DNA of 64,000 nt from a virus (IMGVR_UViG_3300020182_000012); one strand, 5' to 3'. Positions 3,407 through 56,274 are shown, counted from the first letter of the stretch. Notes: generated by a model from the sequence alone, not told the origin. Program-made: numbers and translations.

Positions 3407-5128
3407 ATGGCCGGATGGAAAAAATACTTTAAAGTGGTGGGCAACGAAGGTGGGCAACTTTCGCCTATTAGCGGACGGTCTACTCAAGGATCAAATGGTC
3501 AAGGCGGCCAATTTGGTTTTAAGAATTACCAAAGTCACTTGCCTGAAGTGTATTCAGGTCACCCTAACAGAATTGAACGCTACAATCAGTATGAAAATAT
3601 GGATTGCGACAGTGAAATCAATGCATGTTTAGATATCATTGCTGAGTTTGCAACACAAACCAATGAAAGCAACAACACACCGTTTGAAGTTGAATACACT
3701 GATACTCCTACAAACAACGAAATTGAGATTATTAGAAAACAACTACAACAGTGGACTAAACTCAACAAGTTTGATCAACGTATATTCCGTCTTTTCCGTA
3801 ACACGTTGAAGTACGGCGATCAAGTTTTTGTTAGAGATCCAGAAACCTTTGAACTATACTGGGTTGACATGACCAAAGTAGTAAGAGTTATTGTCAATGA
3901 AAACGAAGGCAAGAAACCTGAACAATACGTTATTCGTGATATCAATCCCAACTTTCAAAATTTAAGCATTGCTCCTAAAAGCACCACAGACTATGGATCA
4001 AATCCTAATGCAGGGTCAATTGGCGGCAGCGGCGGATCAAATTCAAACTACACTATCCCAAATGCACCTCTTGCAGGTGGACAAAGTAGATTTGAACACA
4101 CTATAAACGAAACAGTAATTGATGCTAAAAATATAGTACACCTTGGACTTAGTGAAGGCTTGGATTTTTATTGGCCGTTTAGTCAAAGTATACTTGAAAT
4201 GATTTTCAAAGTATTCAAGCAAAAAGAGTTACTTGAAGACTCGATTCTAATTTATCGTGTGCAACGTGCGCCAGAACGTAGAGTATTTTATATTGATGTA
4301 GGCAACATGCCAAGTCACCTTGCTATGCAGTTTGTTGAACGTGTTAAAAATGAAGTGCACCAAAGACGTATTCCCAATCAACAAGGCGGGCAAGCTGGTA
4401 CTACAATGGATACTACATACAATCCATTGTCAATCAACGAAGATTACTTCTTTCCACAAACAGCAGAAGGTAGAGGATCAAAAGTTGAAACACTACCAGG
4501 AGGCGAAAACCTTGGACAAATCGACGATTTAAAATACTTTAACAACAAGATGTGCAGAGGACTTCGTGTTCCTAGCAGCTACCTTCCGACTGGCCCAGAC
4601 GACAGTGATCGACCAATGAACGACGGTCGTGTTGGTACTGCACTTATACAAGAATATAGATTTAATCAGTATTGCGAAAGACTGCAAAAGCAAATTTGTC
4701 AAAAACTTGATGATGAATTTAAAATGTTTTTGCGCTGGAGAGGCTTTAACATTGACAGCGGGTTGTTTAGCATCAAGTTTGCACCGCCACAGAATTTTGC
4801 TAGTTATCGTCAAGCCGAACTTGATACAACTCGTATGCAAGCGTTTAGCACATTAGAGCAAATTCCCTACATGAGCAAGCGTTTTCTTATGAAACGTTAC
4901 CTGGGTCTCACTGACGACGAGTTGCAAGAAAACTCGAAATTGTGGAGTGAAGAAACTGGGCAACCAAGTGAACTTGAACCAATGGGCAAAGATTTACGCA
5001 CAGTTGGTGTTAGTCCTGCTGATTTTGATGCAGATATCGAAACCGGCGGTGACATTGAAGCAGGCGGTGAGGAAATTGATGTGGACATTGATGCTGGTGC
5101 AGTTGCAGCAGAAACGCCTCCGGCATAA
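3407..5128 (+). CDS. gp20: Portal protein (T4 gp20-like)
   Basis: LLEDSILIYRVQRAPERRVFYIDVGNMP, EDYFFP, GRGSKVETLPGGENLG motifs. Confidence 0.95.
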   Translation: MAGWKKYFKVVGNEGGQLSPISGRSTQGSNGQGGQFGFKNYQSHLPEVYSGHPNRIERYNQYENMDCDSEINACLDIIAEFATQTNESNNTPFEVEYTDTPTNNEIEIIRKQLQQWTKLNKFDQRIFRLFRNTLKYGDQVFVRDPETFELYWVDMTKVVRVIVNENEGKKPEQYVIRDINPNFQNLSIAPKSTTDYGSNPNAGSIGGSGGSNSNYTIPNAPLAGGQSRFEHTINETVIDAKNIVHLGLSEGLDFYWPFSQSILEMIFKVFKQKELLEDSILIYRVQRAPERRVFYIDVGNMPSHLAMQFVERVKNEVHQRRIPNQQGGQAGTTMDTTYNPLSINEDYFFPQTAEGRGSKVETLPGGENLGQIDDLKYFNNKMCRGLRVPSSYLPTGPDDSDRPMNDGRVGTALIQEYRFNQYCERLQKQICQKLDDEFKMFLRWRGFNIDSGLFSIKFAPPQNFASYRQAELDTTRMQAFSTLEQIPYMSKRFLMKRYLGLTDDELQENSKLWSEETGQPSELEPMGKDLRTVGVSPADFDADIETGGDIEAGGEEIDVDIDAGAVAAETPPA

Positions 5129-5136
5129 ATATTATT

Positions 5137-5352
5137 ATGAAACTATTTGAATTTTTTGAAGCAGCGCCAGAAGGGTACCAAGATGTAGAGGATGACAATT
5201 CTACACCGCAACTCGGCGAACTGCGCAAAACTAAACTAACTCTTAAACAAATTTCAAAACTTCGAAAAATGTATGACATGCGAAATTATGAAAAAAAAGA
5301 AGAGCTGAAAAAGGTGCAAGCACAATATGCACCAGCGCCGCCACAAATGTGA
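5137..5352 (+). CDS. Small putative prohead core/internal protein
   Basis: Follows the portal; MKLFEFFE N-terminus resembles a T4 capsid-targeting sequence; RKTKLTLKQI..LRKM. Confidence 0.6.
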   Translation: MKLFEFFEAAPEGYQDVEDDNSTPQLGELRKTKLTLKQISKLRKMYDMRNYEKKEELKKVQAQYAPAPPQM

Positions 5353-5480
5353 TACTTTATTAGAATTTTTCTTTTAGTCTAATAAATTTATCGTTTTCTA
5401 CCCATTTTACTCCTATAACTGCATAGTTTTTAGTATCTATGTTAAATATTATACTGAGCCCATACTTTGGAGGAACCAAT

Positions 5481-6278
5481 ATGAACAAATTTGAACAACT
5501 TATCGAATTCGTTATTAACGACGAAGAAGATAAAGCAAAAGCTCTCTTTCATGAGATCGTTGTAGAGCAATCTAAAACAATCTATGAAGACATCATGTCT
5601 GAAGAATCAGACGCAGAAAAAGATGACCATGCTGAAAAAGCTGGTGATGAAGTTAAAAAAGACATCGAGTATGATGACAAAATGGACGAGTCCATCGAAG
5701 AGTCAGAACTTGGTGGATCACAAGTTGACGATCTTATTGACGAAATTGAAGCCGAAGAGCAAGGCGTCACTTTTGAAGATGAAGAAGAAATCGAAATGGT
5801 TGACGTCGACGTTGAAGATGATGACGACGATGAAGAACTCGAAGATCGTGTTGTTGGTCTAGAAGACAAACTAGACGAACTTATGTCTGAGTTTGAAGAA
5901 CTCATGGGTCAAGTTGATGACAACACTGACGACATCGACGATGTTGAAGATGACCATGAAGAAATGGACATGGACGACGAAACAGTCGAAGTTGACATGG
6001 AAATAGAAGGTCTAGAAGAAAATGTTGACCTAACTGCTGCTCCTAAAGCTGTTACCACTGAACCAGCTGGTACTCAAACGAGTAGTACTGTGGCTGCCAA
6101 CAGTGGCGCAAAAGGTGCTGTAGCAAAACCAGTTGACACAGACACTGCTCCAGAAAAAGGTCGCTCTGCTCCAAAAGCACAAGACCAAGGTAACACAACA
6201 AGACCAGACATGAAAGCTGCGCCAAAACCGCAACTAGCACAAGCGTCTGGTGTGAACACCAAAAGCGTTATTGACTAA
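5481..6278 (+). CDS. Acidic prohead core protein (gp67/gp68-like by position)
   Basis: GGAGG RBS; very Asp/Glu-rich; lies between portal and protease. Confidence 0.65.
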   Translation: MNKFEQLIEFVINDEEDKAKALFHEIVVEQSKTIYEDIMSEESDAEKDDHAEKAGDEVKKDIEYDDKMDESIEESELGGSQVDDLIDEIEAEEQGVTFEDEEEIEMVDVDVEDDDDDEELEDRVVGLEDKLDELMSEFEELMGQVDDNTDDIDDVEDDHEEMDMDDETVEVDMEIEGLEENVDLTAAPKAVTTEPAGTQTSSTVAANSGAKGAVAKPVDTDTAPEKGRSAPKAQDQGNTTRPDMKAAPKPQLAQASGVNTKSVID

Positions 6279-6292: not shown

Positions 6293-6919
6293 ATGGCTCT
6301 TTATCTTAGAGAAAACCTTACCTTCGAAACCGCACAAATTCAACTCGTTGAAGGGAAAGACGGTAAGGAACTCTTTATGGAAGGCATCTGCATACAAGGT
6401 GGTGTTAAGAACGCTAATGAGCGAATATACCCTGTGAGTGAGATTTCTAACGCAGTTAAAACTCTTAATGAACAGATCAAAGAAGGCAATAGCGTCCTTG
6501 GTGAAGTTGATCACCCGGATGACCTTAAGATTAATTTAGACCGTGTATGTCACATGATTACTAGTATGTGGATGGACGGTCCAAATGGATACGGAAAACT
6601 AAAAATACTTCCAACACCAATGGGCGAGCTAGTTAAAACTATGCTTCAGTCAGGTGTGCGATTGGGAGTATCTAGTCGTGGATCGGGTAATGTAGATCCA
6701 CACAACGGACACGTCAGTGACTTTGAAATTGTTACTGTCGATGTAGTCGCACAACCCAGTGCTCCAAATGCTTACCCTAAAGCTATTTACGAAGGACTTT
6801 TGAACATGAAACATGGTCATGCAGTTCTCGAAATGGCTAGGGAGTCAGGGTCAAACGACAGAGTACAGAAGTACCTAACAGACGAAGTATCTCGTCTGAT
6901 TAGGGACCTAAAGATTTAG
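6293..6919 (+). CDS. gp21: Prohead protease (T4 gp21-like)
   Basis: NANERIYP, GEVDHP, INLDRVCH, GVSSRGSG, DVVAQPSAPNAY motifs. Confidence 0.95.
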   Translation: MALYLRENLTFETAQIQLVEGKDGKELFMEGICIQGGVKNANERIYPVSEISNAVKTLNEQIKEGNSVLGEVDHPDDLKINLDRVCHMITSMWMDGPNGYGKLKILPTPMGELVKTMLQSGVRLGVSSRGSGNVDPHNGHVSDFEIVTVDVVAQPSAPNAYPKAIYEGLLNMKHGHAVLEMARESGSNDRVQKYLTDEVSRLIRDLKI

Positions 6920-8040: not shown

Positions 8041-9252
8041 ATGTCACAAGAACTACTAGAAAACAGATGGAGTGAGACCAAGGAAGCCCTCCTAGAAGGC
8101 CTTCAAGGTTCACGCCGTTCAACAATGGGTGTTATCCTAGAAAACACTCGTAAGCACTTGGCAGAGAATGCAACAGCAGGTTCAACTTCTTCCGGTAACG
8201 TAGCAACACTTAACCGTGTTATCCTACCAGTTATCAGACGTGTTATGCCAACTGTTATTGCTAACGAACTAGTCGGCGTTCAGCCAATGACTGGCCCAGT
8301 TGGCCAAATTCACACACTACGTGTTCGTTATGCAAACGCAATGACAGACAACTCGGCAGCAGCAACAAGTACAGCCGCTGGTGACGAAGCACTAAGTCCA
8401 TTCAAAATTGCACAAGCTTACTCCTCTGCGTCCACAGTGACAGCAGGCGTTGTACAAAATGCACAGAACACATACCAAGGTGCAAACACAGCAGTACTTG
8501 AAGGCTCCGGTGGTCGTCAGATTTCCGTACAAATCCTCAAGCAAGCTGTTGAAGCAAAAACACGTAAGCTACAAGCTCGCTGGACATTTGAAGCAGCACA
8601 AGACGCACAAGCCATGCACGGCATTGACGTTGAAGCTGAAATCATGGCAGCACTTGCTCAAGAAATTACTGCTGAAATCGACCAAGAGATCCTACTTTCT
8701 CTACGTTCACTAGCAGCAACTGAGTTTACATACAACCAAGCCACAGTATCAGGTACAGCAACATTTGTTGGTGACGAGCATGCAGCTCTTGCAGTTCTAA
8801 TCAACCGTACAGCTAACTTGATCGCTCAGCGTACACGCCGTGGCGCAGGCAACTATGCTGTTGTTTCCCCTGCTGCACTTACAGTGCTACAGAGTGCAAC
8901 AACAAGTGCATTTGCTCGCACAACAGAAGGCACATTCGAAGCACCAACAAATACTAAATTCGTCGGTACATTGAATGGCACAATGCGTGTATTCTGCGAC
9001 TCATATGCAGGCGACACAACTCCAGTACTAGTTGGCTACAAAGGCGCAAGTGAAACAGACGCACCAGCGTTCTATTGCCCATACGTACCGCTAATGAGTT
9101 CGGGCGTTGTTCTTGATCCGTCCAGCTTTGAGCCAGTAGTGTCCTTTATGACACGTTATGGCTATATTGAGCTAACAAACACAGCATCGTCCTTCGGCAA
9201 CGCCGGTGACTATGTTGGTGAAATTGCTGTACAGAACCTTTCGTTCTCATAA
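8041..9252 (+). CDS. gp23: Major capsid protein (T4 gp23-like)
   Basis: VGVQPMTGPVG, AKTRKLQARWTFEAAQD, FYCPYVPL, FMTRYG; strong AGGAG RBS. Confidence 0.97.
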   Translation: MSQELLENRWSETKEALLEGLQGSRRSTMGVILENTRKHLAENATAGSTSSGNVATLNRVILPVIRRVMPTVIANELVGVQPMTGPVGQIHTLRVRYANAMTDNSAAATSTAAGDEALSPFKIAQAYSSASTVTAGVVQNAQNTYQGANTAVLEGSGGRQISVQILKQAVEAKTRKLQARWTFEAAQDAQAMHGIDVEAEIMAALAQEITAEIDQEILLSLRSLAATEFTYNQATVSGTATFVGDEHAALAVLINRTANLIAQRTRRGAGNYAVVSPAALTVLQSATTSAFARTTEGTFEAPTNTKFVGTLNGTMRVFCDSYAGDTTPVLVGYKGASETDAPAFYCPYVPLMSSGVVLDPSSFEPVVSFMTRYGYIELTNTASSFGNAGDYVGEIAVQNLSFS

Positions 9253-9287: not shown

Positions 9288-9318
9288 GAAAACAGCACCT
9301 TCGGGTGCTGTTTTTTTA
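9288..9318 (+). terminator. Rho-independent terminator
   Basis: AAAACAGCACC-TTCG-GGTGCTGTTTTTTT. Confidence 0.9.
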
Positions 9319-9348
9319 TGTTAAGTTACTTTATAATTAAATACTACT

Positions 9349-10398
9349 ATGAATGTACACTGGCGATTTAATCACGGATCTAACTCTTTTGATCAAGTTG
9401 ACGGAAATCCAATACAATATTATCAACAATTAATGGATCAAGTAAAAACTCCTACATTGATTATTGATATTAGTTTAGTTAAATTTAGAAATCTTGAACT
9501 ATACTTGAATTTTGTGTTAGATTCTGCATCCAAAGAGAATAGTTTGCCAGCTTTTAAACAATTAATATTTGATGCCACACTTGATCCTGTTTATGACTAT
9601 GATGAAAAAGTAAAAATTCTTAACAACTTTGTTAAAAACAAGGGCATTTTAGGATTTTTAAGTTTAAGCCATTTTACGTTAAATCAGCATAGTCATTTAA
9701 CAGAAATAATGTATCCAAGTTGGTTTTTTATTTTTAAAAAACAAAAACTGCCAGAATTAAATTTAGATCAAAAAAAGTGGAAGTACAGTTGTCTTAATAG
9801 AAATCCGAGCTGGCACCGATTGATGCTCTATACAATGGTTAAAGAAAAAAATTTACTTGATCAGTTTGTTTATACATTCTATAATAAATGTCCTTACAAT
9901 GGTACAAAAGTTGATATTGCGTTTTATCATAAGAATAAAAAGTTCTTTGGCAACTACTATACTAACTGTATGAAAAGTATAAAAGATTTACCTTTAACTT
10001 GGCCCGGTGATGTTCAAGGAGAGAACGATCATACGCTAAATCATAGTGCATATTTACACAGTGAGTGTAATATAGTAACTGAAACAAGTGCAACTGTGAG
10101 TTTTGTTAGTGAAAAAATTTGGAAACCTATTGCTGCTGGCCAGATATTCCATGTTGTTGGAAGTGCTTATACAAACAAATGGTTACAAGGTTTGGGGTTC
10201 CATGTATTTGATAAAAATGGCTATGACTCGATTATTGACAATACACAACGTATTAAAAAAGTCGTTGAACTGTTAAACGTAGAAACCATGTGGAACAAAG
10301 AAAACTTGTGTAGCATTGAACATAATTATCATTTGTTTCACAGCGGAGTAGTAGAAAAAAGTATTTTAGATCCATTAGTTGCTATACTTGACCAATAA
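9349..10398 (+). CDS. Hypothetical protein, possible glycosyltransferase (GT10-like C-terminal motif)
   Basis: SCLNR..HR and IVTET...SEKIWKPI...G.G motifs; AT-rich; paralog of 33825..34898. Confidence 0.5.
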   Translation: MNVHWRFNHGSNSFDQVDGNPIQYYQQLMDQVKTPTLIIDISLVKFRNLELYLNFVLDSASKENSLPAFKQLIFDATLDPVYDYDEKVKILNNFVKNKGILGFLSLSHFTLNQHSHLTEIMYPSWFFIFKKQKLPELNLDQKKWKYSCLNRNPSWHRLMLYTMVKEKNLLDQFVYTFYNKCPYNGTKVDIAFYHKNKKFFGNYYTNCMKSIKDLPLTWPGDVQGENDHTLNHSAYLHSECNIVTETSATVSFVSEKIWKPIAAGQIFHVVGSAYTNKWLQGLGFHVFDKNGYDSIIDNTQRIKKVVELLNVETMWNKENLCSIEHNYHLFHSGVVEKSILDPLVAILDQ

Positions 10399-10420
10399 AT
10401 TCTGCTAAATACTTTTCTAA

Positions 10421-18124: not shown

Positions 18125-21100
18125 ATGGCTATAACCAGAATTAAGAATAACCAGATTACCGACAGTACTATTGTCGCTAGTTCTAAACTAGTTGACAACA
18201 GTATTAGTGCAGGTAAGCTGGCAGACGATCTGGTATACGGTAGTAACCTTACCGTAACAGGAAATCTAACAGTACAAGGTACAAGTACAACACTTGATAC
18301 TGTAAACACACTAATCGAAGATCCAATCTTGCTATTGGCTAAAGATCAAACCGGCTCGCCCGTTTTTGACATTGGCTTTGTCGGCGAACGTGGGGATTCA
18401 ACTAATATCGCATGGATTTGGGACGAAAGTGCAAGTGAATTTGCAGCAGGGTTCACATCAGCAGATGCAAGTGGCAACGTGGTTGCGCTATCAAGTTATG
18501 CTGATGCACAAGTTGCAGACCTTACATTGGTCAACATGGCACCAAGTGGTAACGTAACAACAGCACTAAATGTTGATGCTACAATCGAAGCTGGTACTTC
18601 TATCGAAGCGCCAACACTAACAGACGGTACAATGAGTATCAATGCTGGTAGTATCACAGGTGGCGTAGCTGCTACATTCAGTGGTAACGTAAGTGCTGGT
18701 AACTTGATTACTGCTGGTGCTCTTGAAGCAGCAGCACTAACTGCAACCGGTAATGTAACTGGTGGCAATATTGTATCACAAGCAGACGTAACAACTGTTA
18801 GCGTAACTGCAAGTGGCACCGTCGAAGGTGGCACATTAACTGATGGTACTGCAAGTCTTAACGCAGGCAGTATCACAGGTGGTGTTGCTGCTACGTTTAG
18901 TGGTAATGTTGATAGTGGTAATGTTAACACAACATTGGTTGATGCAACTACACTAACAGCAAGTGGTACTGTAACAGGCGGTACACTAACTGATGGTACA
19001 CTATCTAGTACAGCTGGTACTGTAACAGGTGGCGTAGCTGCTACATTTAGTGGCAATGTTGATTCAGGCAATGTTAACACAACATTGGTTGATGCAACTA
19101 CACTAACAGCAAGTGGTACTGTAACAGGTGGCACATTAACTGATGGTACAGCAAGTATTACTGCTGGTACACTAACAGGCGGCGTAGCTGCTACGTTTAG
19201 TGGCAATGTAACTGCTGGTAACTTGATTACAGGCGGTGCACTTGAAGCACAAGCACTAACAGCCATTGGTAATGTAACTGGTGGCAATATTGTATCACTA
19301 GCAGACGTAACAACTGTCTCTGTAACAGCATCAGGTACTGTTGAAGGTGGTACACTAACTGATGGCACTGCTACACTAACTGGTGGTAGTATCACAGGTG
19401 GCGTTGCTGCTACGTTCAGTGGTAATGTTGACAGTGGTAATGTTAACACAACACTAGTTGATGCAACTACATTGACTGCAAGTGGCACTGTAACAGGTGG
19501 CACATTAACTGATGGCACATTGAGTTCAACTGGTGGTACTGTAACAGGTGGCGTAGCTGCTACATTCAGTGGTCAAGTAAGTGCTGGTACACTAACTGAT
19601 GGCACATTGAGTATCAACTCAGGTGCAATCACAGGCGGAACTAATGCTACATTTACTGGTACAGTACAGGGCCTAGACGTAACCGCAACTGGCAACGTAA
19701 ATGCTAGTGTGGTTAACACAACTGACGTTAAAGGTACTTCGGTAACTCTTACTGCAACTGGCACAAATGAAGACATTGTTCTTCTTCCAAGTGGCACAGG
19801 CGTTATTGATGCGAGTAGTGCAAAAATTGTTTCTCTTGCAGATCCAGTACAAGATAGTGACGCAGCCAATAAAGGCTATGTTGACAGTGTTGCAGAAGGT
19901 CTTGACGTTAAAGGTTCAACTAGAGCCGCAACTGCTACTGCTCTACCAGCCAACACATACAACAACGGTTCATCTGGTGTAGGTGCTACACTAACAGGTA
20001 ATGCCAACGGTGCATTGGCTAATCAAGATGATGTTGTAATGGCACAAGGCGATAGACTACTTGTTAAAGACGAATCTACTGCCGCAAACAATGGTATCTA
20101 TGTTGTAACTACACTTGGTGACGCAGGCACTGCCTACGTTCTAACTCGTGCAGAAGACATGGATGGTTCACCTACTAGTGAAATTCCAGGTGCGTTTACT
20201 TTTGTTGAAGAAGGCACAGTATACCTTGATAGTGGTTGGGTTTGTACAACAAACGCTCCGGTTACTATGGGTACAACTGCTATTAACTGGAGTCAGTTCT
20301 CCGGTGCTGGTTCAATTGTAGCAGGCGACGGTCTATCTAAATCAGGTAATGAGCTATCTGTAAATGTTGACGAAACTACAACTACAATCACTGCTGATGC
20401 AGTTGTTGTTAAAGCAGGCGCACAGTTTGTAACACCAGATATTGGTGCTGCTACCGGTACAAGTCTAACTGCAACAGGCACCGTTGAAGGTGCTACACTA
20501 ACTGATGGTACTGCAAGTATTAATGCTGGTACACTAACAGGCGGCGTAGCCGCTACATTCAGTGGTAACGTTGACAGTGGTAATGTTAACACAACACTAG
20601 TTGATGCAACTACTGTAACAGCAAGTGGCACTGTAACAGGTGGTACACTAACAGACGGCACGTTGAGTTCAACTGGTGGTACTGTAACTGGCGGCGTAGC
20701 TGCTACATTCAGTGGCAATGTCGACAGTGGTAATGTTAACACAACACTAGTTGATGCAACTACATTGACTGCAAGTGGCACTGTAACAGGTGGTACACTA
20801 ACTGATGGTACTGCAAGTATTACTGCTGGTACACTAACAGGTGGTGTTGCTGCTACATTCAGTGGTAACGTAACTGCCGGTAACTTGATTACAGGTGGTG
20901 CACTTGAAGCACAAGCACTAACTGCAACCGGTAATGTAACTGGTGGCAATATTGTATCACTAGCAGACGTCACAACAGTATCTGTAACTGCAAGTGGCAC
21001 TGTTGAAGGCGGTACACTAACTGATGGTACTGCAAGTATTAATGCCGGTACATTAACAGGTGGTGTTGCTGCTACATTCAGTGGTAACGTTGACAGTGGT

Positions 21101-33211: not shown

Positions 33212-33813
33212 CACAGATACCAATTGTAAATGGAACCAATGGGCAAACCTGGATGGAACTCTGGGAAACCGAAGAATACAACAGTAGCAAGAAATTGCAA
33301 TGGGAGGCAGTTGACCAGTATCTCAATCAATCCGTTAGCATTAGTTGCGAAATCGGGTGCGGGCAAGCATACGACAGTCTTTGGTTTCAGCAAGCATATG
33401 GAACTGAGGTTTATCTGATTGAAGGTGTTAGTGAGAAGAACAATAAAGAACAAGCTCGACAAGGAAAGTTTGGACAAGCTGATAATTTTGTTTACTATCA
33501 TAGCAAAGCCGAACTAAATGCCGAATGGGATAGATTAGAGTTACAAAGAACGCATCTTACTCCCGAGGACTGCGACAAACTAAAAAAATCTACAACGTTT
33601 GATCTAATCTTTAGTTTTAAAAGTTGTGGCGCACACTATCCAATGAGCACCTACACTGACTTTATTCGCAAGCACATCAACAAAAACACAAGATTGATTT
33701 TTGACTTGCGAAACGGACAAGATACGTTTAACAGCATTGGTATAGATTATGAAATTGTTAACGTGATCGCAACCAGCAAAAAACACAAAACTGTAGAATT
33801 AAAACTTATATAA
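33208..33813 (+). CDS. SAM-dependent methyltransferase-like protein
   Basis: EIGCG motif I, FDLIFS..S.G.HYP. Confidence 0.6.
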   Translation: MTQIPIVNGTNGQTWMELWETEEYNSSKKLQWEAVDQYLNQSVSISCEIGCGQAYDSLWFQQAYGTEVYLIEGVSEKNNKEQARQGKFGQADNFVYYHSKAELNAEWDRLELQRTHLTPEDCDKLKKSTTFDLIFSFKSCGAHYPMSTYTDFIRKHINKNTRLIFDLRNGQDTFNSIGIDYEIVNVIATSKKHKTVELKLI

Positions 33814-33824
33814 CCAAAGCTAAG

Positions 33825-35393: not shown

Positions 35394-35738
35394 TTAGTCC
35401 TCTATTAGATCTCCAACCTTCCATGGTAGATCTAATCTATTAACTTCGACTGTGCAGTTTAAGCAAACACATCTCAAATTAGCAAGATTGTTATTATTGA
35501 GATTACCATCTATGTGATAGACTAGAATCTGTGCTCCGCTAACCGCATTAAATCCACAACGATCACATGTTGTACTTTTTTTAAATCCGTTCTGTTGCCA
35601 CCTAGGCACAGGCGTTTTTTTGCGACGATTTCTTCTTGTGCAATTATCGCATCTTGTGCGATAATGTGTTTTGCCTTCTTTTTTATAGTTAACAGCAACT
35701 AATCGACGGTTGCATGCGGTACATATGGGTCTATTCAT
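35394..35738 (-). CDS. Zn-binding HNH-like protein
   Basis: Four CxxC motifs; HIDGNLNNNNLANLRCVCLNC. Confidence 0.7.
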   Translation of the reverse strand: MNRPICTACNRRLVAVNYKKEGKTHYRTRCDNCTRRNRRKKTPVPRWQQNGFKKSTTCDRCGFNAVSGAQILVYHIDGNLNNNNLANLRCVCLNCTVEVNRLDLPWKVGDLIED

Positions 35739-35800
35739 GCATTTATTTATATTAAAACCTTTGCAAAGGGCACTCTAAGGGGCTGGAATTCGTATATTTT

Positions 35801-35808
35801 TATAAATA
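35801..35808 (+). promoter_or_regulatory. Late promoter TATAAATA for the sheath gene
   Basis: Exact consensus; a divergent copy lies at 35744-35751 (-). Confidence 0.75.
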
Positions 35809-41407: not shown

Positions 41408-41848
41408 ATGGCCAATAACTATCAACAAGGCTATTACACAGTAATAAATCAATCTAAATATTCAGGCAAAGGCGTGCCTAAATATCGCAGCGGTTGGGAA
41501 TTGGCTTTCATGCGTTTTTGTGACTCTAACGACAGTATTGTAAGTTGGGCAAGCGAGAGTCTTGCTATTCCTTATAGAAATCCACTTACTGGAAAGCAAT
41601 CACGCTATATTCCGGACTTTCTTATACAATACAAAAACAGGCACAATAAAGTCATAACTGAGTTAATTGAAATCAAGCCCAAGAAACAAAGTATAATTGA
41701 AAGCAAAGCATCAAACAAAGAAAAAGCTGTTGTTGCTGTTAACTATGCCAAGTGGGCAGCGGCACAAGCATGGTGCAAACGAAGTGGTATTACTTTTAGA
41801 GTTATCACAGAGGATGATATTTTCCATCAAGGTAAAAAACGCCGGTAA
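41408..41848 (+). CDS. gp4: Head completion nuclease (T4 gp4-like, TnsA-like fold)
   Basis: YRSGWE..F...CD, WASE...IPY, Y.PDF, EIKP..Q, N.AKW.AA, F.VITE. Confidence 0.9.
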   Translation: MANNYQQGYYTVINQSKYSGKGVPKYRSGWELAFMRFCDSNDSIVSWASESLAIPYRNPLTGKQSRYIPDFLIQYKNRHNKVITELIEIKPKKQSIIESKASNKEKAVVAVNYAKWAAAQAWCKRSGITFRVITEDDIFHQGKKRR

Positions 41849-41856
41849 GTATTTAC

Positions 41857-42720
41857 ATGGATAAAATTGACTTTTTTGGCGGATGCCAGGGCAACTTTTT
41901 AGAAGTTGTTATTGACATGTTTATATGTGGCAATAACACAATGGTTGGAAAACCATTGTTCAATGATAACGGTGCCTGCCATCAACAACATAATATAGCA
42001 GATTACAAACCTGAGGTTAGGCAAGGGCATTATTCTTGCCATAACATACCGTTTGACGCAAATGACAATGTAATTGAAATACATGTTAGTGATACAGATA
42101 TGCTGGCTGCATTAACTAATTCATTGGTTAGAGCAGCTGATGAAATAATAGATATAAAAAACTTGCATATAAACACAGTAAAAAAATTAACAGAGTTGCC
42201 CAAAGCTCAAACATTTCTTAATGATTTAATCAAAGAACACGGTGTGCATGACATCTATCCAAAGCAAGTTATTAGAAATTATTTTTATAGTAAGTTTGAT
42301 GACCCAGACCATGGATTGTACTTGTTTAATAACTTTAATCATACAGGAAATAAACACATCTTTCCATTTTCAGCATTTTTTGATTTAGAAGAGTTTTACT
42401 ACCATTTAAACAAGTGTGCACATTTTTTAAATTTAAATTTTTACCCTACTGAGCAGTGTGCTATAATATGGAAAGACTTTATTAATCGTAATCAAGGTTA
42501 TCAGTCACAACAAAAATGTAATATCATTATCAAAAATATTTTAAACGGAAATAACATACCTATAGATAATTTAACACTTGTTGAGGAAGCTTGGATAGTA
42601 CATAGAATTTCTCAGATATTTAGATGTTATGATCATCCATTGCTAGTATCCGACGATTTCCCAACAAACACACTTGATATTTCTGTTGCACTTTATAAAT
42701 GGAAAAGCAACGATTATTGA
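41857..42720 (+). CDS. Hypothetical protein (AT-rich insert)
   Basis: IDFFGGCQGNFL N-terminus; own late core. Confidence 0.65.
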   Translation: MDKIDFFGGCQGNFLEVVIDMFICGNNTMVGKPLFNDNGACHQQHNIADYKPEVRQGHYSCHNIPFDANDNVIEIHVSDTDMLAALTNSLVRAADEIIDIKNLHINTVKKLTELPKAQTFLNDLIKEHGVHDIYPKQVIRNYFYSKFDDPDHGLYLFNNFNHTGNKHIFPFSAFFDLEEFYYHLNKCAHFLNLNFYPTEQCAIIWKDFINRNQGYQSQQKCNIIIKNILNGNNIPIDNLTLVEEAWIVHRISQIFRCYDHPLLVSDDFPTNTLDISVALYKWKSNDY

Positions 42721-42777
42721 GTAGAATTGTAAGCATGAATACTGCACTGCCTGGTTTGCAATCTAATAAATATGCGT

Positions 42778-43299
42778 ATGACACGAAAACTAGAAGAATT
42801 ATTTGAATTGCCAGAATCGTCAGACGACGATGGGCTTGCCAACGAAGTAGTGCCTGATAATGTTCCAGATCCAACGCCTGATAACATGCCGGCAATGCAA
42901 AATGCTCTCAGTGAGCTTGATAAAGTACAAGCTGCTCTGCCTCAAGTAAGGGGGCTTGATGCTAGTGATCAAGAAATGGATGAGTTAGCAGATAAAGCAA
43001 CCAAAAGCTTTGACGACCTAATGGACCTTGGTATGAATATAGACAGTCGATGGGCAAGCGATGTATTCAGCGTAGCAAGTACTATGCTTGGGCATGCTAT
43101 TACTGCAAAAACAGCAAAGTTAAACAAAAAACTTAAAATGGTTGATTTACAGCTAAAGAAAGCTGCATTGGATGCCAAAGCGGCCCAGGCGGCCGCTAAC
43201 AGCAACGACGAAAACGATACTACTACAGGCACAGGAATGATACTAGATCGCAATGCGCTGTTAGATCGTTTATTGAACACAGACAAAGACGAAAAGTAA
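42778..43299 (+). CDS. Putative terminase small subunit
   Basis: MTRKLEELF, helical core DLMDLGMN...A..ML..AI.AK; start inferred from TAAATA-N5-ATG. Confidence 0.6.
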   Translation: MTRKLEELFELPESSDDDGLANEVVPDNVPDPTPDNMPAMQNALSELDKVQAALPQVRGLDASDQEMDELADKATKSFDDLMDLGMNIDSRWASDVFSVASTMLGHAITAKTAKLNKKLKMVDLQLKKAALDAKAAQAAANSNDENDTTTGTGMILDRNALLDRLLNTDKDEK

Positions 43300-49656: not shown

Positions 49657-49789
49657 TAGTATTAAAATTGGCGGGCTCGGAAAGCCTGACTCCAAGCCTG
49701 CTCCTAAGGTTGCGCCAACTCCAGTTGAGTACACAGTTAGTGAAGAGCAGTTTGTAAGAAACGTTCAACCTAAGCAGATAAACGAGTAA
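49649..49789 (+). CDS. Small hypothetical protein (46 aa)
   Basis: AGGAAG upstream; overlaps the previous stop. Confidence 0.4.
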   Translation: MINSIKIGGLGKPDSKPAPKVAPTPVEYTVSEEQFVRNVQPKQINE

Positions 49790-50315
49790 CAGTTACATCT
49801 GTTGCACCAATGTATTTTTGCCAACTTTCGTGGCGTATTTTCATTGGGATATTTCTAATACGATTTGCAATATCCCAATAATCTGGTGCAACTGGTTGCT
49901 TGATTGGTTTCCACAGAGCACTGCCCTTTCTCGAGTTGCACGATCCACATGCAGTTACACTGTTTTCCCATGTTGTTTTGCCACCTCTACTGATTGGTAT
50001 AACATGATCCAACGTTAAATCTTTTTTTCCAACAACTTCTTCGCAATATTGGCAAGTGTATACATCTCTTAGATATAATCCTTGCCTGGTAAAACGTGGT
50101 TTTTTTCTAGAACGTTTAAATCCTCGATTGGACACAACAACTGCTGGTACTCGTATGTCCAACTTTGTACTGTGTACCACCCAGTCATCGTGCCATTCCA
50201 GTACAGTTACTCTGTCGAGGAAAAACAACTTAATTGCTGTCTGCCAACTAATTGTTGATAGTGGCAAGAAACTTACTGGTTGATAATCGGGTGCTAGTAT
50301 TAATGTACTTTCCAT
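49770..50315 (-). CDS. HNH endonuclease (McrA-like)
   Basis: RD.YTCQYC, LTLDHVIP.SRGG.TTWEN.V.AC..CN..KG. Confidence 0.9.
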   Translation of the reverse strand: MESTLILAPDYQPVSFLPLSTISWQTAIKLFFLDRVTVLEWHDDWVVHSTKLDIRVPAVVVSNRGFKRSRKKPRFTRQGLYLRDVYTCQYCEEVVGKKDLTLDHVIPISRGGKTTWENSVTACGSCNSRKGSALWKPIKQPVAPDYWDIANRIRNIPMKIRHESWQKYIGATDVTVTRLSA

Positions 50316-50365
50316 GCTAACAGTATTTAACTACGTAGGGTCACACACAGTACATAAGTATTAAC

Positions 50366-51514
50366 ATGATTAAAGAACAAAAATATTGTGCTGCTCCATG
50401 GCGCAGTCTGCATTTAAATTTTGAAGGGCAAATTAAAACTTGTTGCGCAGGCGATCTTAAAATGTTAGGCAAAAATCACAACGGAACTATCGAATCTATA
50501 TTGCAAAGCCCATTACTCACTGAGATTAAGCAAAGCATTCAAAACGGTATACTACATCCAACATATTGCCGAGGGTGCATTGATAGAGAAGATGCTGGCG
50601 GTCAAAGTGAGCGAGACTGGCACAATAATATTAGCAAACCTTTTAATGTAAAAACTGCTAACCTTGATAATCACGCCCCAAATCTCATTGATGTTCGATG
50701 GAACAACACCTGTAATCTTGCCTGCACTTATTGTGATTCTTATTTTAGTACTAAATGGGCAAGTATAAAAGGAGATATAACAAACAATGAGCAGAATCAC
50801 ACCATTAAGCATCAATACCAACAGTTAATAGATTATATAGAGAAACATAATACACATGTTAAAGAAGTAGCAATGGTCGGCGGCGAACCACTTATGATGA
50901 AAGAAAACAATCTGCTACTTGATGTCCTACCCGACGATGTATTAATAACTGTTATATCTAACATGACACCTGATTTTGACAAATTTCCTGTGCCTAACAA
51001 GTTACTAAGTAGGAAACGTGTAGGATGGAGCATGAGTTTTGATAACATTGGTAAAAGATTTGAATATGTAAGATGGGGTAGTACTTGGGAACAACTCGAC
51101 AAGAATGTTACAACTGTTGCTAATAAAATTAATAATTCTCAACAACACGGCGGAATACATGCTGTATACAACATATATAACTGCACACAATTATGCGAAC
51201 TTAAACAGTATGCACTTGGTAAAGGTATAAACATACTATGGCAACAAGTCAGCGGAGATCATTTTGATCCAATATTGCATAATGCTAAAGTGCGCAAGTT
51301 AGCAATCAACGAAATACAAAAATATAGAAATATGTTTGAAATCTCAGAATCTGATAAAAATTTTTTAGACAGCACAGAAAACAATCTTCAACACGGGACT
51401 ACAGACAAAAGCAAAGAATTCTTAGAGTTTACAGAAAAACTTGAAAATTATTGGCATCCAGATCAACAAGGCAAGTTCTTAGAATTGTGGCCTGATATAG
51501 CTGAGGCACTATAA
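50366..51514 (+). CDS. Radical SAM protein with N-terminal SPASM/twitch-like domain
   Basis: CNLACTYC, GGEP; N-terminal CAAPW...TCC...C..C. Confidence 0.85.
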   Translation: MIKEQKYCAAPWRSLHLNFEGQIKTCCAGDLKMLGKNHNGTIESILQSPLLTEIKQSIQNGILHPTYCRGCIDREDAGGQSERDWHNNISKPFNVKTANLDNHAPNLIDVRWNNTCNLACTYCDSYFSTKWASIKGDITNNEQNHTIKHQYQQLIDYIEKHNTHVKEVAMVGGEPLMMKENNLLLDVLPDDVLITVISNMTPDFDKFPVPNKLLSRKRVGWSMSFDNIGKRFEYVRWGSTWEQLDKNVTTVANKINNSQQHGGIHAVYNIYNCTQLCELKQYALGKGINILWQQVSGDHFDPILHNAKVRKLAINEIQKYRNMFEISESDKNFLDSTENNLQHGTTDKSKEFLEFTEKLENYWHPDQQGKFLELWPDIAEAL

Positions 51515-51522
51515 GTACTAAT

Positions 51523-53094
51523 ATGAGCAAATCACTTGACGGGGTGCTGATTAAAAGTCCCCATAAAAAAGAAGAATACACTGAACAGCAAATTCAAGAA
51601 TTTGTGCTGTGCGCTGATCCTGTGAAGGGTGCCGAATACTTTATGAAGAACTTTTTCTTCATACAACACCCTGTGCAAGGAAAAATGCAGTATGATCCTT
51701 GGGAATTTCAAGAACGCTTGATTCAAACTTACCACGAAAACAGATTTTCAATATCAATGATGCCAAGGCAAACTGGTAAAAGCACAAGTGCTGCTGGATA
51801 TCTTCTTTGGTTTGGTATGTTCAAACCCGACAGTACAATTCTTGTTGCAGCACACAAGTATGCAGGTGCTCAAGAAATTATGCAACGTGTGAGGTATGCA
51901 TACGAAGCATGCCCAAATCACATACGAGCCGGCGTAGTAAGTTACAATAAAGGCAGTATTGAATTTGACAATGGAAGTCGTATTGTAGCACAGACGACAA
52001 CTGAAAATACCGGACGTGGTATGAGTATTACACTTTTATATTGTGACGAGTTTGCATTTGTTCGACCTACTATTGCTAAAGAATTTTGGACTAGTATATC
52101 ACCTACACTGAGCACCGGTGGTGGGGCTATTATTACTAGTACCCCAAACAGTGACGAGGATCAGTTTGCATACATATGGAAAGGCGCAAACAAAACCGAA
52201 GACGAGTTTGGAAATACCAAAGACTTGGGCATTAATGGATTTAAAGCGTATCGAGCATATTGGGCCGAGCATCCCGATAGGGACGAAGAATGGGCAGATG
52301 AGCAACGTGCTATATTAGGAATTGAACGATTCCGTCGAGAAATGGATTGTGAATTCATTATCAACGATGAAACACTTATTGCTCCAACCAAACTGATTGA
52401 TCTCGAAGGCATAGAACCTTTATATAAAACTGGACAAGTTCGTTGGTATAAAAAGCCACAGAAAAATAGAATCTATGTAGTGGCATTGGACCCAAGCCTG
52501 GGCACTGGCGGCGATCCAAGTGCTATCCAAGTGTTTGAAGCTAACACAACAGAACAAGTGGCAGAGTGGCGACACAATAAAACTCCTATTCCGGACCAAA
52601 TTCGAATATTAGTTGACATCATTAAACACATCAATGACGAAGTTCAAGATCCGCAGAGTGTTTACTATTCAGTTGAAAACAATACACTAGGAGAAGCTGC
52701 GTTGATTACAATTGATCAATATGGGGAACAAAATATACCTGGTTATTTTCTAAGTGACAACAGTGTTGTTAGTGGTAGTGGCAGGCGGTATCGCAAAGGA
52801 TTTAATACCACAAACAAAAGTAAAGTTTCAGCATGTGCAAAATTAAAAACACTTGTTGAAACAGACAAAATGACAGTTCGTAGTAGAAGTCTAATAGGCG
52901 AATTTAAAAACTTTGTAGCACATGGCACTAGCTATGCAGCTAAACCCGGAGAAACAGATGATTTGGTTATGTCTACTATATTAGCTATTCGTATGTTGCA
53001 AATTTTAACAGGGTATCACAAGGAACTGGATACACACATGACTGATTTTGGAGAGGATCAAATTGAACCTTTGCCGTTTGTGGCAATGTTTTAA
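51523..53094 (+). CDS. gp17: Terminase large subunit (T4 gp17-like)
   Basis: PRQTGKS Walker A, LLYCDEFAF, ITSTPN, ALDPS, DDLVM. Confidence 0.95.
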   Translation: MSKSLDGVLIKSPHKKEEYTEQQIQEFVLCADPVKGAEYFMKNFFFIQHPVQGKMQYDPWEFQERLIQTYHENRFSISMMPRQTGKSTSAAGYLLWFGMFKPDSTILVAAHKYAGAQEIMQRVRYAYEACPNHIRAGVVSYNKGSIEFDNGSRIVAQTTTENTGRGMSITLLYCDEFAFVRPTIAKEFWTSISPTLSTGGGAIITSTPNSDEDQFAYIWKGANKTEDEFGNTKDLGINGFKAYRAYWAEHPDRDEEWADEQRAILGIERFRREMDCEFIINDETLIAPTKLIDLEGIEPLYKTGQVRWYKKPQKNRIYVVALDPSLGTGGDPSAIQVFEANTTEQVAEWRHNKTPIPDQIRILVDIIKHINDEVQDPQSVYYSVENNTLGEAALITIDQYGEQNIPGYFLSDNSVVSGSGRRYRKGFNTTNKSKVSACAKLKTLVETDKMTVRSRSLIGEFKNFVAHGTSYAAKPGETDDLVMSTILAIRMLQILTGYHKELDTHMTDFGEDQIEPLPFVAMF

Positions 53095-53105
53095 TAAATA
53101 GTATT

Positions 53106-55079
53106 ATGGCACAAGATAACAACGCAGCACAACAAATTTTCGATACTATAGTAACACGAGACCTTGACCCTAAATCACTCGATGCTATGGGCAAGCCGAC
53201 TGTGAATGCAGCCGATGCAGATCTAATTTCGTTTAATTTTAAAACCGAAAACAAAGATTATGGAACAGTGGTTGTCTTAATAGACGGCGAAGAGAAAATT
53301 GAATTATATTACGGTGACAGCATTGGGCGCACAATGGAACGTGATGACCGCAGTGATTGGTATGATTTCCTTGCGGTTATTAGAAATATAGCAAAGCGTA
53401 ACTTGTACACATTTGGCCTTAATAATATGAATAGGTTAAAGTATTCAATGAAAAGCATGGCAAAATTAGCCGAAGGTTGGAACGGAACAAATAAAACCAG
53501 CTATAACAAGCAAGGTCCAGCAAAGCTTATTATCAAACATTCACGAAAGCTAGGCGAAGGTGAAGCACGTTTTAGAAACATTGAAAGTTTGTTTGTTGAA
53601 AATAGCCAAGGCGAAAGATTTAAAATGCCATTCCGTAGTATAAGTGGCGGTAAAGCAATGGCAAGACATGTGTCCGAAGGCGGTAACCCATACGACACAA
53701 TTGGGCAACATATCAGTGACACAATTAGTGAAATAGCAACACTGGGAAGATTTATTAGAGCCAGTAAAAGCAAATCATTTGGGCAAAATGCAGATGCGCT
53801 AAACATTGCCGAAGATGCAGTTAGGCACTACAAAGACCTTAAACGCAAAGCAAAGAAAATGATCAGTCGTCGGGGCTATAAAGATATCTTTGCATCATGG
53901 GATCCGATGGAAATTACCGAGCTTGACGAAACCATTGAGCAAGTAAGAGAAGTATTTTCAAAAAATACAATTGATAGCCGTATCGAAGAAGCTCTACCAA
54001 TATTAGCAAAGATAAAGGAAACTAGCATGAAAGAAGCTGACGTATTTGAGCAGTGGGCAGACAGTATCACTGAAGGTACATGGGCATTGCCCGATACGCC
54101 AGAACAAATGGCAGAATTAGCTGAACTTATGAAAGAACCATTGCATTGTGGTCCAGCTGGCGAATTTGCAACTGAGCAACTGTATGGACTAATTGGCGAC
54201 GATGAACTGTTTGATGACATTTATGAAATGGGATTGGAAAATCCCGATGCTGATTGTAGACCACTAGTACTAGCTAGACTCAAAGAATTCAACATCGAGC
54301 TTGGCGAAAATGCACCAATGACTAGCATACGCCCACAGTCTAGAACACTTAGCAACCTTGGCGGCACACGAGAAATTGCACCAAACGGAGAACCAACTGG
54401 TAGTACCAGAGGCTTTAAGCCACTAGGAGAAGATGAGCAGTTAAATGAAATTGCACCTGCTGCGGTTGCAGCGGCTGTTTGGGTTATCAAATGGTGTATC
54501 AGATTTGGTGCTTGGCCAGTAATTAAGTGGTTGTTGAAAAAACACGGTGGTAAACTGTTTGGTGGCGCAGCTATAGCTTATTATATTGACGAAGGATGGG
54601 ATTGGGTTAAACGTGCAATTGGTGAAGAATATGCACAAATGTTGATTGACAATAAATTTGAAATTGGCATGGCAGTTGCATTTATAGTAGGTGCTGTTGC
54701 ACTTAAAAAACTCGTCGAGAAACAAGGTGAGAAACTTGTTAGTGCAAACGACAAGATGGACACAATGAATGAAGATCAGGCATATAGAACTGATCGTTTA
54801 AATACTATTCAAAAAGATAGAACTGATCGTCTAAACGCTATTCAAAAAGGCAGAGATGATCGAAAAGCAGAACTTCAAAAGTCTAGAGATGACAGACGTG
54901 GAGTAGTAGAAGATCCAACGCAAGAAGAGCCTCTTACTAAAGCAAATCAACAAGACCTCGACGATGAAGATATGACAGAAGTAACAGACATTGACACAGG
55001 AAAACCTGCACTAAAAGCAGAGCGTGACCCAATGATCGAATCAGAGCTAGATAGACTATTAACACTAGCTCGAGGGTAG
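53106..55079 (+). CDS. Modular virion-associated protein with a hydrophobic insert
   Basis: AMARHVSEGG.PYD core; several X-E cleavage-like sites; amphipathic segment 54450-54773. Confidence 0.7.
   Translation: MAQDNNAAQQIFDTIVTRDLDPKSLDAMGKPTVNAADADLISFNFKTENKDYGTVVVLIDGEEKIELYYGDSIGRTMERDDRSDWYDFLAVIRNIAKRNLYTFGLNNMNRLKYSMKSMAKLAEGWNGTNKTSYNKQGPAKLIIKHSRKLGEGEARFRNIESLFVENSQGERFKMPFRSISGGKAMARHVSEGGNPYDTIGQHISDTISEIATLGRFIRASKSKSFGQNADALNIAEDAVRHYKDLKRKAKKMISRRGYKDIFASWDPMEITELDETIEQVREVFSKNTIDSRIEEALPILAKIKETSMKEADVFEQWADSITEGTWALPDTPEQMAELAELMKEPLHCGPAGEFATEQLYGLIGDDELFDDIYEMGLENPDADCRPLVLARLKEFNIELGENAPMTSIRPQSRTLSNLGGTREIAPNGEPTGSTRGFKPLGEDEQLNEIAPAAVAAAVWVIKWCIRFGAWPVIKWLLKKHGGKLFGGAAIAYYIDEGWDWVKRAIGEEYAQMLIDNKFEIGMAVAFIVGAVALKKLVEKQGEKLVSANDKMDTMNEDQAYRTDRLNTIQKDRTDRLNAIQKGRDDRKAELQKSRDDRRGVVEDPTQEEPLTKANQQDLDDEDMTEVTDIDTGKPALKAERDPMIESELDRLLTLARG
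54784..54849 (+). repeat. 33-nt tandem repeat (RTDRLNxIQKx), degenerate copies follow
   Basis: ATAGAACTGATCGT(T/C)TAAA...CTATTCAAAAAG twice. Confidence 0.85.
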
Positions 55080-55080
55080 C

Positions 55081-55644
55081 ATGTCCATAGAAACAATAAT
55101 CCCTGCTCAGTTGTGGTTGATCAGGGATTTCTTTCCTCAAGAACAATATGTATTTGTTCGCGACTTATATAGAAAAGCAGAAAATAATAAATTGCAAATG
55201 GTTTATGATAATCGTTTGCTTACCAATTGGGCCGAAACCAAAGAACCCAATGACATATGTGCTTCATGGGCACCGTACTTTAGTGACCTATGTGGTGTTA
55301 ATCTAAAGCCACAAGTTGGATATGTTGACATCACATTGTCACATGCAAAAATTATGATGCATCGTATACACCGCGACATCAAGTTTCAAGTACAGATTCC
55401 TCTATGCACAATGGCTGCCGACACAAATCGATATGCATTTTGTACATCAGACGAAGTTAATACAGCAATAGGCGAAAACGATCATTCTCCTAGTCGCAAT
55501 ATTGCTGCCAATGAATGTGTTTATGTTCCACATGAACCCAGGAGTGCAATTGCATATCTTAATAATCCACGCATTTTTAATGGTATGATGAATAGCATAC
55601 CCGAAAACAGCATACGTGAAACACTATGGCTTAACTATCAGTAG
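55081..55644 (+). CDS. 2OG-Fe(II) oxygenase-like protein
   Basis: HRD motif, QVQI.L, C-terminal RETL. Confidence 0.55.
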   Translation: MSIETIIPAQLWLIRDFFPQEQYVFVRDLYRKAENNKLQMVYDNRLLTNWAETKEPNDICASWAPYFSDLCGVNLKPQVGYVDITLSHAKIMMHRIHRDIKFQVQIPLCTMAADTNRYAFCTSDEVNTAIGENDHSPSRNIAANECVYVPHEPRSAIAYLNNPRIFNGMMNSIPENSIRETLWLNYQ

Positions 55645-56206
55645 CTAGGTTATACTGGAATGCTATGCTCTGGCGTGTGCCGTAACCCTGTATAACTTGG
55701 TGCACTTTTTGATCGGTGTTTAAGTTAAGGTACCCGCAATTAGCTACTATCGGGGCCTCAACTGATGGATCAACATGCATAAATTCTGCACCATATAACC
55801 GATGTTCGTGATCTTGAATGTGTTTAACATCAACGTATATTTGTAATGTGACAATAATTTCAGCACTATCACCATGCGGCTGGCAATCAAACAGTGGCAA
55901 ATCAAGCCAAAATTTACCAACCATTAAGTTTAGTTTTTTATTTAGAATTTTTTCAAGTTGTGGTATTAAGCTAACTCCAACTTTTTGAAGTTTTTTCTGA
56001 TCTACACCGTTTGCTAATAATAAGCGGTTATGCGGCCGGCTAACTTCAAATTTATTATCGGTATTTACATAGATACCTTGCATCCACTCAAGTGTATCGT
56101 TATTGAAGGTGTTATGTACCCACCACAAATTTGGAGCTGCAAGTTCAAATTCTACATCTTGTCCAAAATAGTTGACTTCTTCTGTGTTTATGTTATTATG
56201 TGTCAT
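55631..56206 (-). CDS. 2OG-Fe(II) oxygenase-like protein
   Basis: HGD, LQIY, G.EF, N.GY, distal H, RQS. Confidence 0.7.
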   Translation of the reverse strand: MTHNNINTEEVNYFGQDVEFELAAPNLWWVHNTFNNDTLEWMQGIYVNTDNKFEVSRPHNRLLLANGVDQKKLQKVGVSLIPQLEKILNKKLNLMVGKFWLDLPLFDCQPHGDSAEIIVTLQIYVDVKHIQDHEHRLYGAEFMHVDPSVEAPIVANCGYLNLNTDQKVHQVIQGYGTRQSIAFQYNLATDS

Positions 56207-56274
56207 GTGTATATTTAATCCAAGCCAGGTCAATCAGCAAAGTTTATTCTTTAGACAATTGTTAACCTTTCTGC

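Follow-up and report, generated by a model that had tools for sequence, protein, structure and literature searches.

We analysed a stretch of 64,000 nt, given as one strand, of the uncultured virus IMGVR_UViG_3300020182_000012 (hereafter the window), which is the virion and packaging region of a jumbo T4-like myovirus, a water phage. At nine genes of the window the hexamer TAA(A/G)TA (TAARTA), the presumed core of a T4-type late promoter, lies exactly 5 nt before the ATG start codon, and no Shine-Dalgarno (SD) sequence precedes the start; we refer to box, spacer and ATG together as a cassette. We think it probable that these late boxes give rise to leaderless late mRNAs and that the same unit also acts as a junction for accessory genes. 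In the mechanism that we propose, the box would be read by the host RNA polymerase together with a phage gp55-like sigma factor, and late initiation would fall on the A of the start codon, both at the nine window genes and at about 17 to 19 genes of G002, a 299,910-bp contig from IMG/VR that is about 91% identical to the window. The resulting messages would be translated without an SD sequence, probably at a lower yield than the SD-led messages for capsid, sheath and tube. As a 14-nt box plus ATG would suffice for late expression, the unit would also be a junction for the insertion or precise loss of accessory genes.

A hexamer at one fixed distance from the start codon

The pattern TAARTA-N5-ATG (N4, N5, N7 and so on give the number of nucleotides between box and ATG) was found nine times in the window, against 2.13 +/- 1.59 expected from 100 dinucleotide shuffles of the window; the shuffle maximum was 6 and 0 of 100 shuffles reached 9. 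A scan of all spacings from 0 to 40 nt produced a sole spike at N5 (9 sites), the remaining spacings holding 0 to 5 sites each. When only ATGs that open reading frames (ORFs) of at least 60 aa were counted, N5 again had 9 and any other short spacing 0 or 1, while a broad low hump at 15 to 28 nt corresponded to the SD-led genes. An earlier reading of this DNA made from the sequence alone (the sequence-only reading) had named these nine genes, had predicted both a spike at 5 nt and an excess over shuffled sequence, and had noted the lack of an SD sequence before the nine starts; all four statements agree with the counts given here. Using GGAG, GAGG or AGGA in positions -17 to -5 of the start as the SD test, we found an SD sequence before none of the nine cassette genes, and a strong SD sequence in 31 of 68 window genes.

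All nine cassette ATGs are plausible true starts. They open ORFs of 71 to 657 aa and sit 4 to 15 codons past an in-frame stop; seven of the nine ORFs have no in-frame start upstream, none of the nine has an SD-associated alternative start within 40 codons, and the protein N-termini are kept in relatives. GTG or TTG starts at N5 were absent from the window and from G002, a test of low power, such starts being rare in the genome.

Two trivial sources of the pattern were considered and rejected. The TAA of the box is itself the stop codon of the upstream gene at 5126, 41846 and 51512, and at 53095 the box directly follows a stop; five of the nine boxes neither overlap nor abut a stop, and the spike is confined to one spacing, which argues against a stop-codon artefact. 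Pairing of UAAG with the 16S rRNA 3' end (CUUA), so that the box itself would act as an SD sequence, was rejected because the fourth-position G of the TAAGTA variant is present in only three of the nine cassettes and at most 4 bp could form. It is also excluded by the occurrence of the same box far upstream of true SD sequences.

Predicted transcription start

Late transcription in T4 uses the 8-bp box TATAAATA at -13 to -6, the gp55 sigma factor, the gp33 co-activator and the gp45 clamp (Geiduschek and Kassavetis 2010, PMC2988020). With the last A of TAARTA placed at -6 as in T4, a spacer of 5 nt makes the A of the ATG position +1. G002 (not the window itself) encodes a gp55-like late sigma factor: the segment 261800-262030 (-) matches T4 gp55 by tblastn (E 2.3e-6), and the ORF, of 304 aa at about 261.1-262.0 kb, matches phrog_12791 'sigma factor for late transcription' (E 9.8e-75) and phrog_234 (E 1.6e-24). 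TAARTA boxes precede the sheath, terminase, small head protein and virion protein genes as well as many SD-led virion genes.

Bacterial transcription usually starts at a purine (+1) preceded by a pyrimidine (-1). By inspection of the window the base before the cassette ATG is a pyrimidine in 9 of 9 cases; in the statistical comparison it was so in 8 of 8 cassettes of the window and 12 of 12 of G002 versus 46% of other genes (Fisher p = 0.005 and 1e-4), and in SD-led genes the -1 base is mostly A. We read the pyrimidine as a probable Y-1/R+1 start-site signature. Similarly, 27 of 50 SD-led late promoters have an A at offset +6 from the box, and in 32 of 50 a pyrimidine stands just before that offset; as +6 is the position taken by the A of the cassette ATG, it supports a start at or next to the AUG. 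Leaderless messages are reported to need an unstructured 5' end. Over their first 30 nt, cassette ORFs had a median minimum free energy of 0.0 versus -1.3 kcal/mol for SD-led genes (p = 0.013 in G002 and 0.026 in the window), a modest effect that comes partly from lower GC. Four cassettes head transcription units, that of gene 9349 after a terminator and those of 35738 (-), 50366 and 56206 (-) in short divergent gaps, and at these four no other late box is available.

The sequence-only reading held that the mRNAs begin at the AUG. The geometry does put +1 on its A, and to that extent the claim stands; the exact start is a prediction, and a leader of 0 to 3 nt may be nearer the truth. The further suggestion that the host translates leaderless mRNA especially well is unsupported, because about half of the phage genes carry a canonical SD sequence.

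Conservation of the spacing among relatives

The nearest cultured phages by large terminase (TerL), namely PA5oct, Phosso and Atu_ph07, are only about 51% identical, and a megablast search of the terminase region against GenBank phages gave no match. We used contigs of IMG/VR: a 25-kb fragment (G001) with 99% nucleotide identity to the window as a near relative, G002, which was analysed whole, and contigs from among the hundreds of further, more distant relatives, which reach about 350 kb. Genomes other than the window were scored against a reversed control pattern. G002 had 25 matches to TAARTA-N5-ATG versus 3 to the control; at its ATGs opening ORFs of at least 60 aa, N5 was found 17 times versus roughly 0 to 6 times for other spacings, and the sites were spread from 13 to 247 kb. 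Among the more distant contigs the counts were 24 versus 9 (G008), 14 versus 3 (G009), 20 versus 12 (G007) and 11 versus 13 (G006). There was no excess over the control in T4 (15 versus 12), PA5oct (20 versus 17) or Phosso (4 versus 4). The Pelagibacter myophage HTVC008M had 18 versus 6, and in a 15-kb stretch of its genome all seven matches were annotated coding-sequence starts of late genes.

For single genes we recorded the nearest TAARTA box upstream of each orthologous start, in more than 100 uncultured relatives in all. The 71- to 75-aa gene that follows the portal gene had its box at 4 to 7 nt in all 58 relatives that were compared (N4 in 6, N5 in 43, N6 in 1, N7 in 8), none having it at 8 to 16 or 17 to 36 nt and none lacking it. 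Of 73 portal orthologues, 54 had the box at 4 to 7 nt (N5 in 6, N6 in 2, N7 in 46), none at 8 to 16 nt and 16 at 17 to 36 nt, with no box within the range searched in 3. Most portal orthologues with the box at 17 to 36 nt carry an SD-like GGA. The portal gene is box-fused in relatives; the window lineage has the long form. The empty zone from 8 to 16 nt is what two mutually exclusive modes of initiation would predict, because a leader of that size would be too long for recognition of a 5' AUG and too short for an SD sequence plus spacer.

TerL orthologues as distant as 79% in aa identity still have TAAGTA-N5-ATG; L005 has TAAATA instead, and L007 a one-base variant. Orthologues of the radical-SAM/SPASM enzyme (rSAM) encoded just before TerL are 61 to 70% identical in aa sequence, and most of 11 relatives keep TAAGTA-N5-ATG there. 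At the orthologue of gene 42778 in G001 and G002, different upstream DNA still supplies TATAAATA, at N4. N5 or N7 boxes were found in relatives at the position of gene 53106 (orthology by position and N-terminus only) and, in relatives of 70% identity, at that of the 191-aa gene 55631-56206 (orthology by position only). The cassette of this last gene in the window is identical in G002, G004 and G005, and the cassette at 35736..35749 (-), which heads its transcription unit and diverges from the sheath gene, is kept in G002.

In distant relatives (portal starts of loci L046-L114, and L121-L179) N7 was seen at the portal gene and a few others, with the spacer consensus nnnnAYY. This consensus suggests that at N7 sites transcription may start one base closer to the box, leaving a 3-nt leader. 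N7 was rejected as a second genome-wide class: it was enriched only in G007 (15 versus 5) and not in G002, G006, G008 or G009, and is site-specific.

Structural genes with Shine-Dalgarno leaders

The major capsid gene (8041) and the tail tube gene (39825) are preceded by AAGGAG, the tail sheath gene by AAGGAAG, and genes 10501 and 18125 are likewise SD-led. The box of the sheath gene lies 36 nt before its ATG, and the same hexamer, mostly as TAAATAC, is found 17 to 36 nt upstream of SD-led virion genes. These are the five genes for which the sequence-only reading had claimed long leaders with SD sequences, and its division of the late genes into two tiers is also seen: terminase, rSAM and small or accessory proteins have a box fused to the start, whereas capsid, sheath and tube are SD-led.

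Within the ORF 18125-23560 (1811 aa), the segment 18600-23200 gave dozens of overlapping blastn hits to G002 with 75 to 95% identity. The overlap suggests that the protein contains a tandem array of diverged domain repeats, and that the window and G002 differ in how many of these there are and in how they are ordered.

Cassettes at sites of gene gain and loss

Relative to G001 or G002, a breakpoint is at most 21 nt away from six of the nine cassettes, and this junction role of most cassettes was overlooked in the sequence-only reading. The block 9318-10403, with the box and ORF 9349, is missing from G002; a terminator hairpin with a T-run (9293-9317) ends 21 nt before the cassette, and gene and box are a self-contained insert between the terminator and the next late promoter. 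Gene 41857, bounded by two cassettes, is missing from G002 and even from G001, which is 99% identical. A 16-nt direct repeat, ATAAGTAYTAAYATGA, formed at the cassettes 50355 and 51512, encloses the rSAM gene; G002, L003, L004 and L006 have no rSAM gene and a single cassette joined directly to TerL. The order rSAM-TerL is kept in 11 more distant relatives (TerL 83 to 86% identical), at least 10 of which keep TAAGTA-N5-ATG before TerL; the simplest history is hence repeated precise loss of rSAM between the two repeats. A recent internal duplication as the source of the rSAM gene was rejected, as it is only 23 to 26% identical to other rSAM genes of G002.

At the junction between portal and small gene, G002 has a 1.46-kb two-gene insert, made up of a 148-aa ORF and a different rSAM gene (L036:4226-5685), with the downstream cassette preserved; this insert is absent from the window. 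Radical-SAM/SPASM genes would thus appear to behave as movable accessory genes of late modules. The HNH endonuclease gene that diverges from the rSAM/TerL unit (phrog_16726, E 1e-28) is present in L199 and L204, and other sequence takes its place in L197, L200-203 and L206; it may be a homing endonuclease that adds variability at the terminase locus. Its start has a box at N8 and no SD sequence, and the A at offset +6 would predict a 3-nt leader. A 357-aa gene of the window (33804-34890) has no family hit, is absent from G002 and has no late-box cassette; not every accessory gene, therefore, uses one.

A broader possibility, which we put forward only tentatively, is that the 14- to 16-nt unit of late box, N5 and ATG is a portable module, across a clade of aquatic phages of 300 to 350 kb, that serves gene expression as well as recombination. 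An ORF placed behind the unit would be expressed late without a ribosome-binding site. As the unit is repeated at many junctions, often over the previous stop codon, recombination between copies would insert accessory genes or excise them precisely. The cargo would be radical-SAM and other putative tailoring enzymes and nucleases, placed inside conserved virion and packaging operons, and the module would be a late-gene, leaderless counterpart of the early shuffling cassettes of T4-type phages discussed below.

Alternative explanations

Several observations weigh against the leaderless late promoter. Only one of the nine cassettes carries the full TATAAATA box (35744-35751, -), although all nine have the 6-nt core, six with an A at -12 before it; that the core alone acts as a promoter is our inference, particularly for the TAAGTA variant. 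The two sets of boxes are not identical: SD-led boxes favour TAAATAC (C in 29 of 50), whereas C is present in only two of the nine cassettes. A tblastn search of G002 with T4 gp45 found no homologue, and gp33 was not searched for. N4 and N7 occur at the same genes in relatives, and at the N7 sites an A is conserved at offset +5; the start may thus float by 1 nt, with some messages having leaders of 2 to 3 nt, so that 'exactly leaderless' may have to be replaced by 'with a leader of 0 to 3 nt'. Finally, the four boxes that overlap or abut a stop codon may be compatible with tight packing and translational coupling on read-through transcripts.

This last point leads to the explanation that the genes are translated, independently of SD sequences, from longer read-through transcripts, through an AU-rich region bound by S1 or by reinitiation after the upstream ORF, the box being no active promoter or just an AU-rich enhancer or stop-start junction. 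The tight packing of the genes, the four of nine boxes that contain or abut the stop of an upstream co-directional gene, the fact that TAAGTA is not a documented T4 late box and the N4 and N7 variants at orthologues would all fit. We nevertheless judge it unlikely, as no co-directional ORF precedes four of the cassettes, which stand behind a terminator in one case and in divergent gaps in three, and as an S1-type enhancer would require neither an exact hexamer nor an exact distance nor a pyrimidine at -1. Moreover, the same hexamer stands 17 to 36 nt upstream of SD-led genes, and orthologues change only between this arrangement and the fused one. That the cassettes are primarily recombination junctions, with the adjacency to ATG a by-product and not an expression signal, is suggested by the breakpoints near six of nine cassettes and by the 16-nt repeat around rSAM, of which relatives without rSAM keep exactly one copy. 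This we consider improbable as a sole explanation: TerL, the small head gene and the 657-aa protein keep their cassette across relatives of 66 to 85% identity while the flanks diverge, and the motif is the same late-promoter box that other genes of the genome have. A recombination role complements the expression role and does not exclude it. Chance, in the form of a compositional artefact of AT-rich intergenic DNA and TAA stops, could draw on a genome of about 40% GC (60% A+T) and on the TAA stops that contribute to four sites. Its likelihood is negligible: the spacing statistics already refute it, since no shuffle reached the observed count, the spike is at N5 only and G002 far exceeds its reversed control, while T4, PA5oct and Phosso have no excess. 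A late promoter that starts leaderless messages is hence the explanation that we prefer.

Relation to known systems

The boxes have the AT-rich core TAAATA of the -10-only T4 late promoters, precede virion genes on both strands as these do and are followed by an AT-rich segment; a gp55 homologue, too, is present in G002. They differ in that the T4 box is not phased to start codons and T4 late genes have SD leaders, whereas some of the boxes described here stand at a constant 5 nt from an ATG without an SD sequence, and the terminase and rSAM genes have kept the TAAGTA variant. The leaderless genes of 'group C' in GeneMarkS-2 have their -10 box 6 to 8 nt from the start codon (PMC6028130), and in the cassettes 6 nt separate the ATG from the sigma-70-equivalent hexamer (A)TAAAT, a distance within this range. 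Leaderless starts of Actinobacteria and Deinococcus (PMC6028130, PMC4633059, PMC4007540) likewise combine a fixed short distance from box to AUG with the lack of an SD sequence, and leaderless and SD-led genes share one genome (a dual gene-start model). These bacteria use the host sigma-70/SigA -10 element, whereas the box here would be that of a phage late sigma factor, so that the class would be late-only; unlike theirs, the cassettes here also occur within operons and over stop codons.

In T4-type phages, modules are shuffled by way of PeSL elements, each of which combines an early promoter with a terminator stem-loop (Arbiol et al. 2010, PMC2839356; Comeau et al. 2014, PMC4122927). Like the cassettes, they are short regulatory repeats that stand beside genes which closely related phages have gained, lost or replaced. 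PeSLs lie in hyperplastic early regions, whereas the present unit has no stem-loop, consists of a late box and an ATG, and lies in virion and packaging modules. The composite structure of PeSLs was not found here: only two of the nine cassettes adjoin a hairpin (9293-9317 and 53071-53086, the latter terminator-like, at the end of TerL and before cassette 53095). The SAR11 phage HTVC008M (NC_020484), in which TAAATA-N5-ATG is enriched as described above, is a known phage with a similar layout, as judged from its sequence only; it has 147 kb, belongs to the Kyanoviridae and is not a close relative. The PA5oct transcriptome paper reports sigma-70-like promoters only, with no late or leaderless data. 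Leaderless phage messages in general have been described as common (PMC5312081). In the paper library that we searched, no account of T4-type phages with start codons joined to late boxes came to light.

If the proposal is correct, a late-gene class of widespread giant aquatic T4-like phages, and likewise of HTVC008M, would bypass SD-dependent initiation. Promoter architecture would then set protein dosage, separating low-copy enzymes, terminase and portal from bulk virion proteins, and accessory genes could be gained or lost inside essential operons by a simple route that leaves expression undisturbed. The paradigm of T4 late transcription, which lacks such phasing, would thereby be extended. 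In practical terms, gene callers that use ribosome-binding-site models may misplace these starts.

Feature positions and further observations

Table 1. Cassettes, boxes and genes of the window, with positions counted from its first nucleotide
Feature	Position	Strand	Details
Portal	3407-5128	+	
Cassette TAAATAttattATG	5126..5139	+	TAA is the portal stop; starts 71-aa small head-module gene 5137-5352, phrog_13986
Prohead protease	6293-6919		
Major capsid protein	8041-9252		
Cassette TAAATActactATG	9338..9351	+	starts accessory 349-aa gene 9349-10398
Cassette TAAATAaatgcATG	35736..35749	-	preceded by TA, giving full TATAAATA; starts 114-aa gene 35394-35738, weak HNH_3 hit
Late box TATAAATA	35801..35808	+	36 nt before sheath ATG 35845, then SD AAGGAAG
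Tail sheath	35845-39105	+	
Tail tube	39825-41039		
Cassette TAAGTAtttacATG	41846..41859	+	TAA is the stop of gene 41408-41848; starts accessory 287-aa gene 41857-42720
Cassette TAAATAtgcgtATG	42767..42780	+	starts 173-aa gene 42778-43299, phrog_16202
HNH endonuclease	49770-50315	-	
Box and start TAAATActgttagcATG	50313..50329	-	N8, no SD; starts HNH endonuclease gene; back to back with cassette 50355
Cassette TAAGTAttaacATG	50355..50368	+	starts rSAM/SPASM gene; unit head in divergent 50-nt gap
Radical-SAM/SPASM enzyme (rSAM)	50366-51514	+	
Cassette TAAGTActaatATG	51512..51525	+	TAA is the rSAM stop; starts TerL gene
Large terminase (TerL)	51523-53094	+	
Cassette TAAATAgtattATG	53095..53108	+	directly after TerL stop; starts 657-aa virion structural protein gene 53106-55079, phrog_13484
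Cassette TAAATAtacacATG	56204..56217	-	starts 191-aa gene 55631-56206, divergent from gp32-like SSB gene
gp32-like single-stranded DNA-binding protein (SSB)	56402-57385		
UvsX	57496-58593		

Neither of the two accessory proteins missing from close relatives had a family hit: the 349-aa protein gave only a weak GT10-like lead and the 287-aa protein only a weak sulfotransferase-like lead. Four to five distant paralogues of the C-terminal half of the 349-aa protein are scattered over G002 (25 to 35% identity; near 5-6, 15, 131 and 260 kb), and the protein appears to be a member of a multi-copy phage gene family of unassigned function.

A sigma-70-like promoter, TTGACG-17-TATACT at 56275-56303 (+), was seen about 100 nt upstream of the gp32-like SSB gene; a putative early or middle promoter would thus adjoin the divergent late cassette 56204-56217. 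The first ATG of the ORF for a 766-aa virion protein (1065-3365) has TAAATA just 1 nt before it (about 1118-1133).

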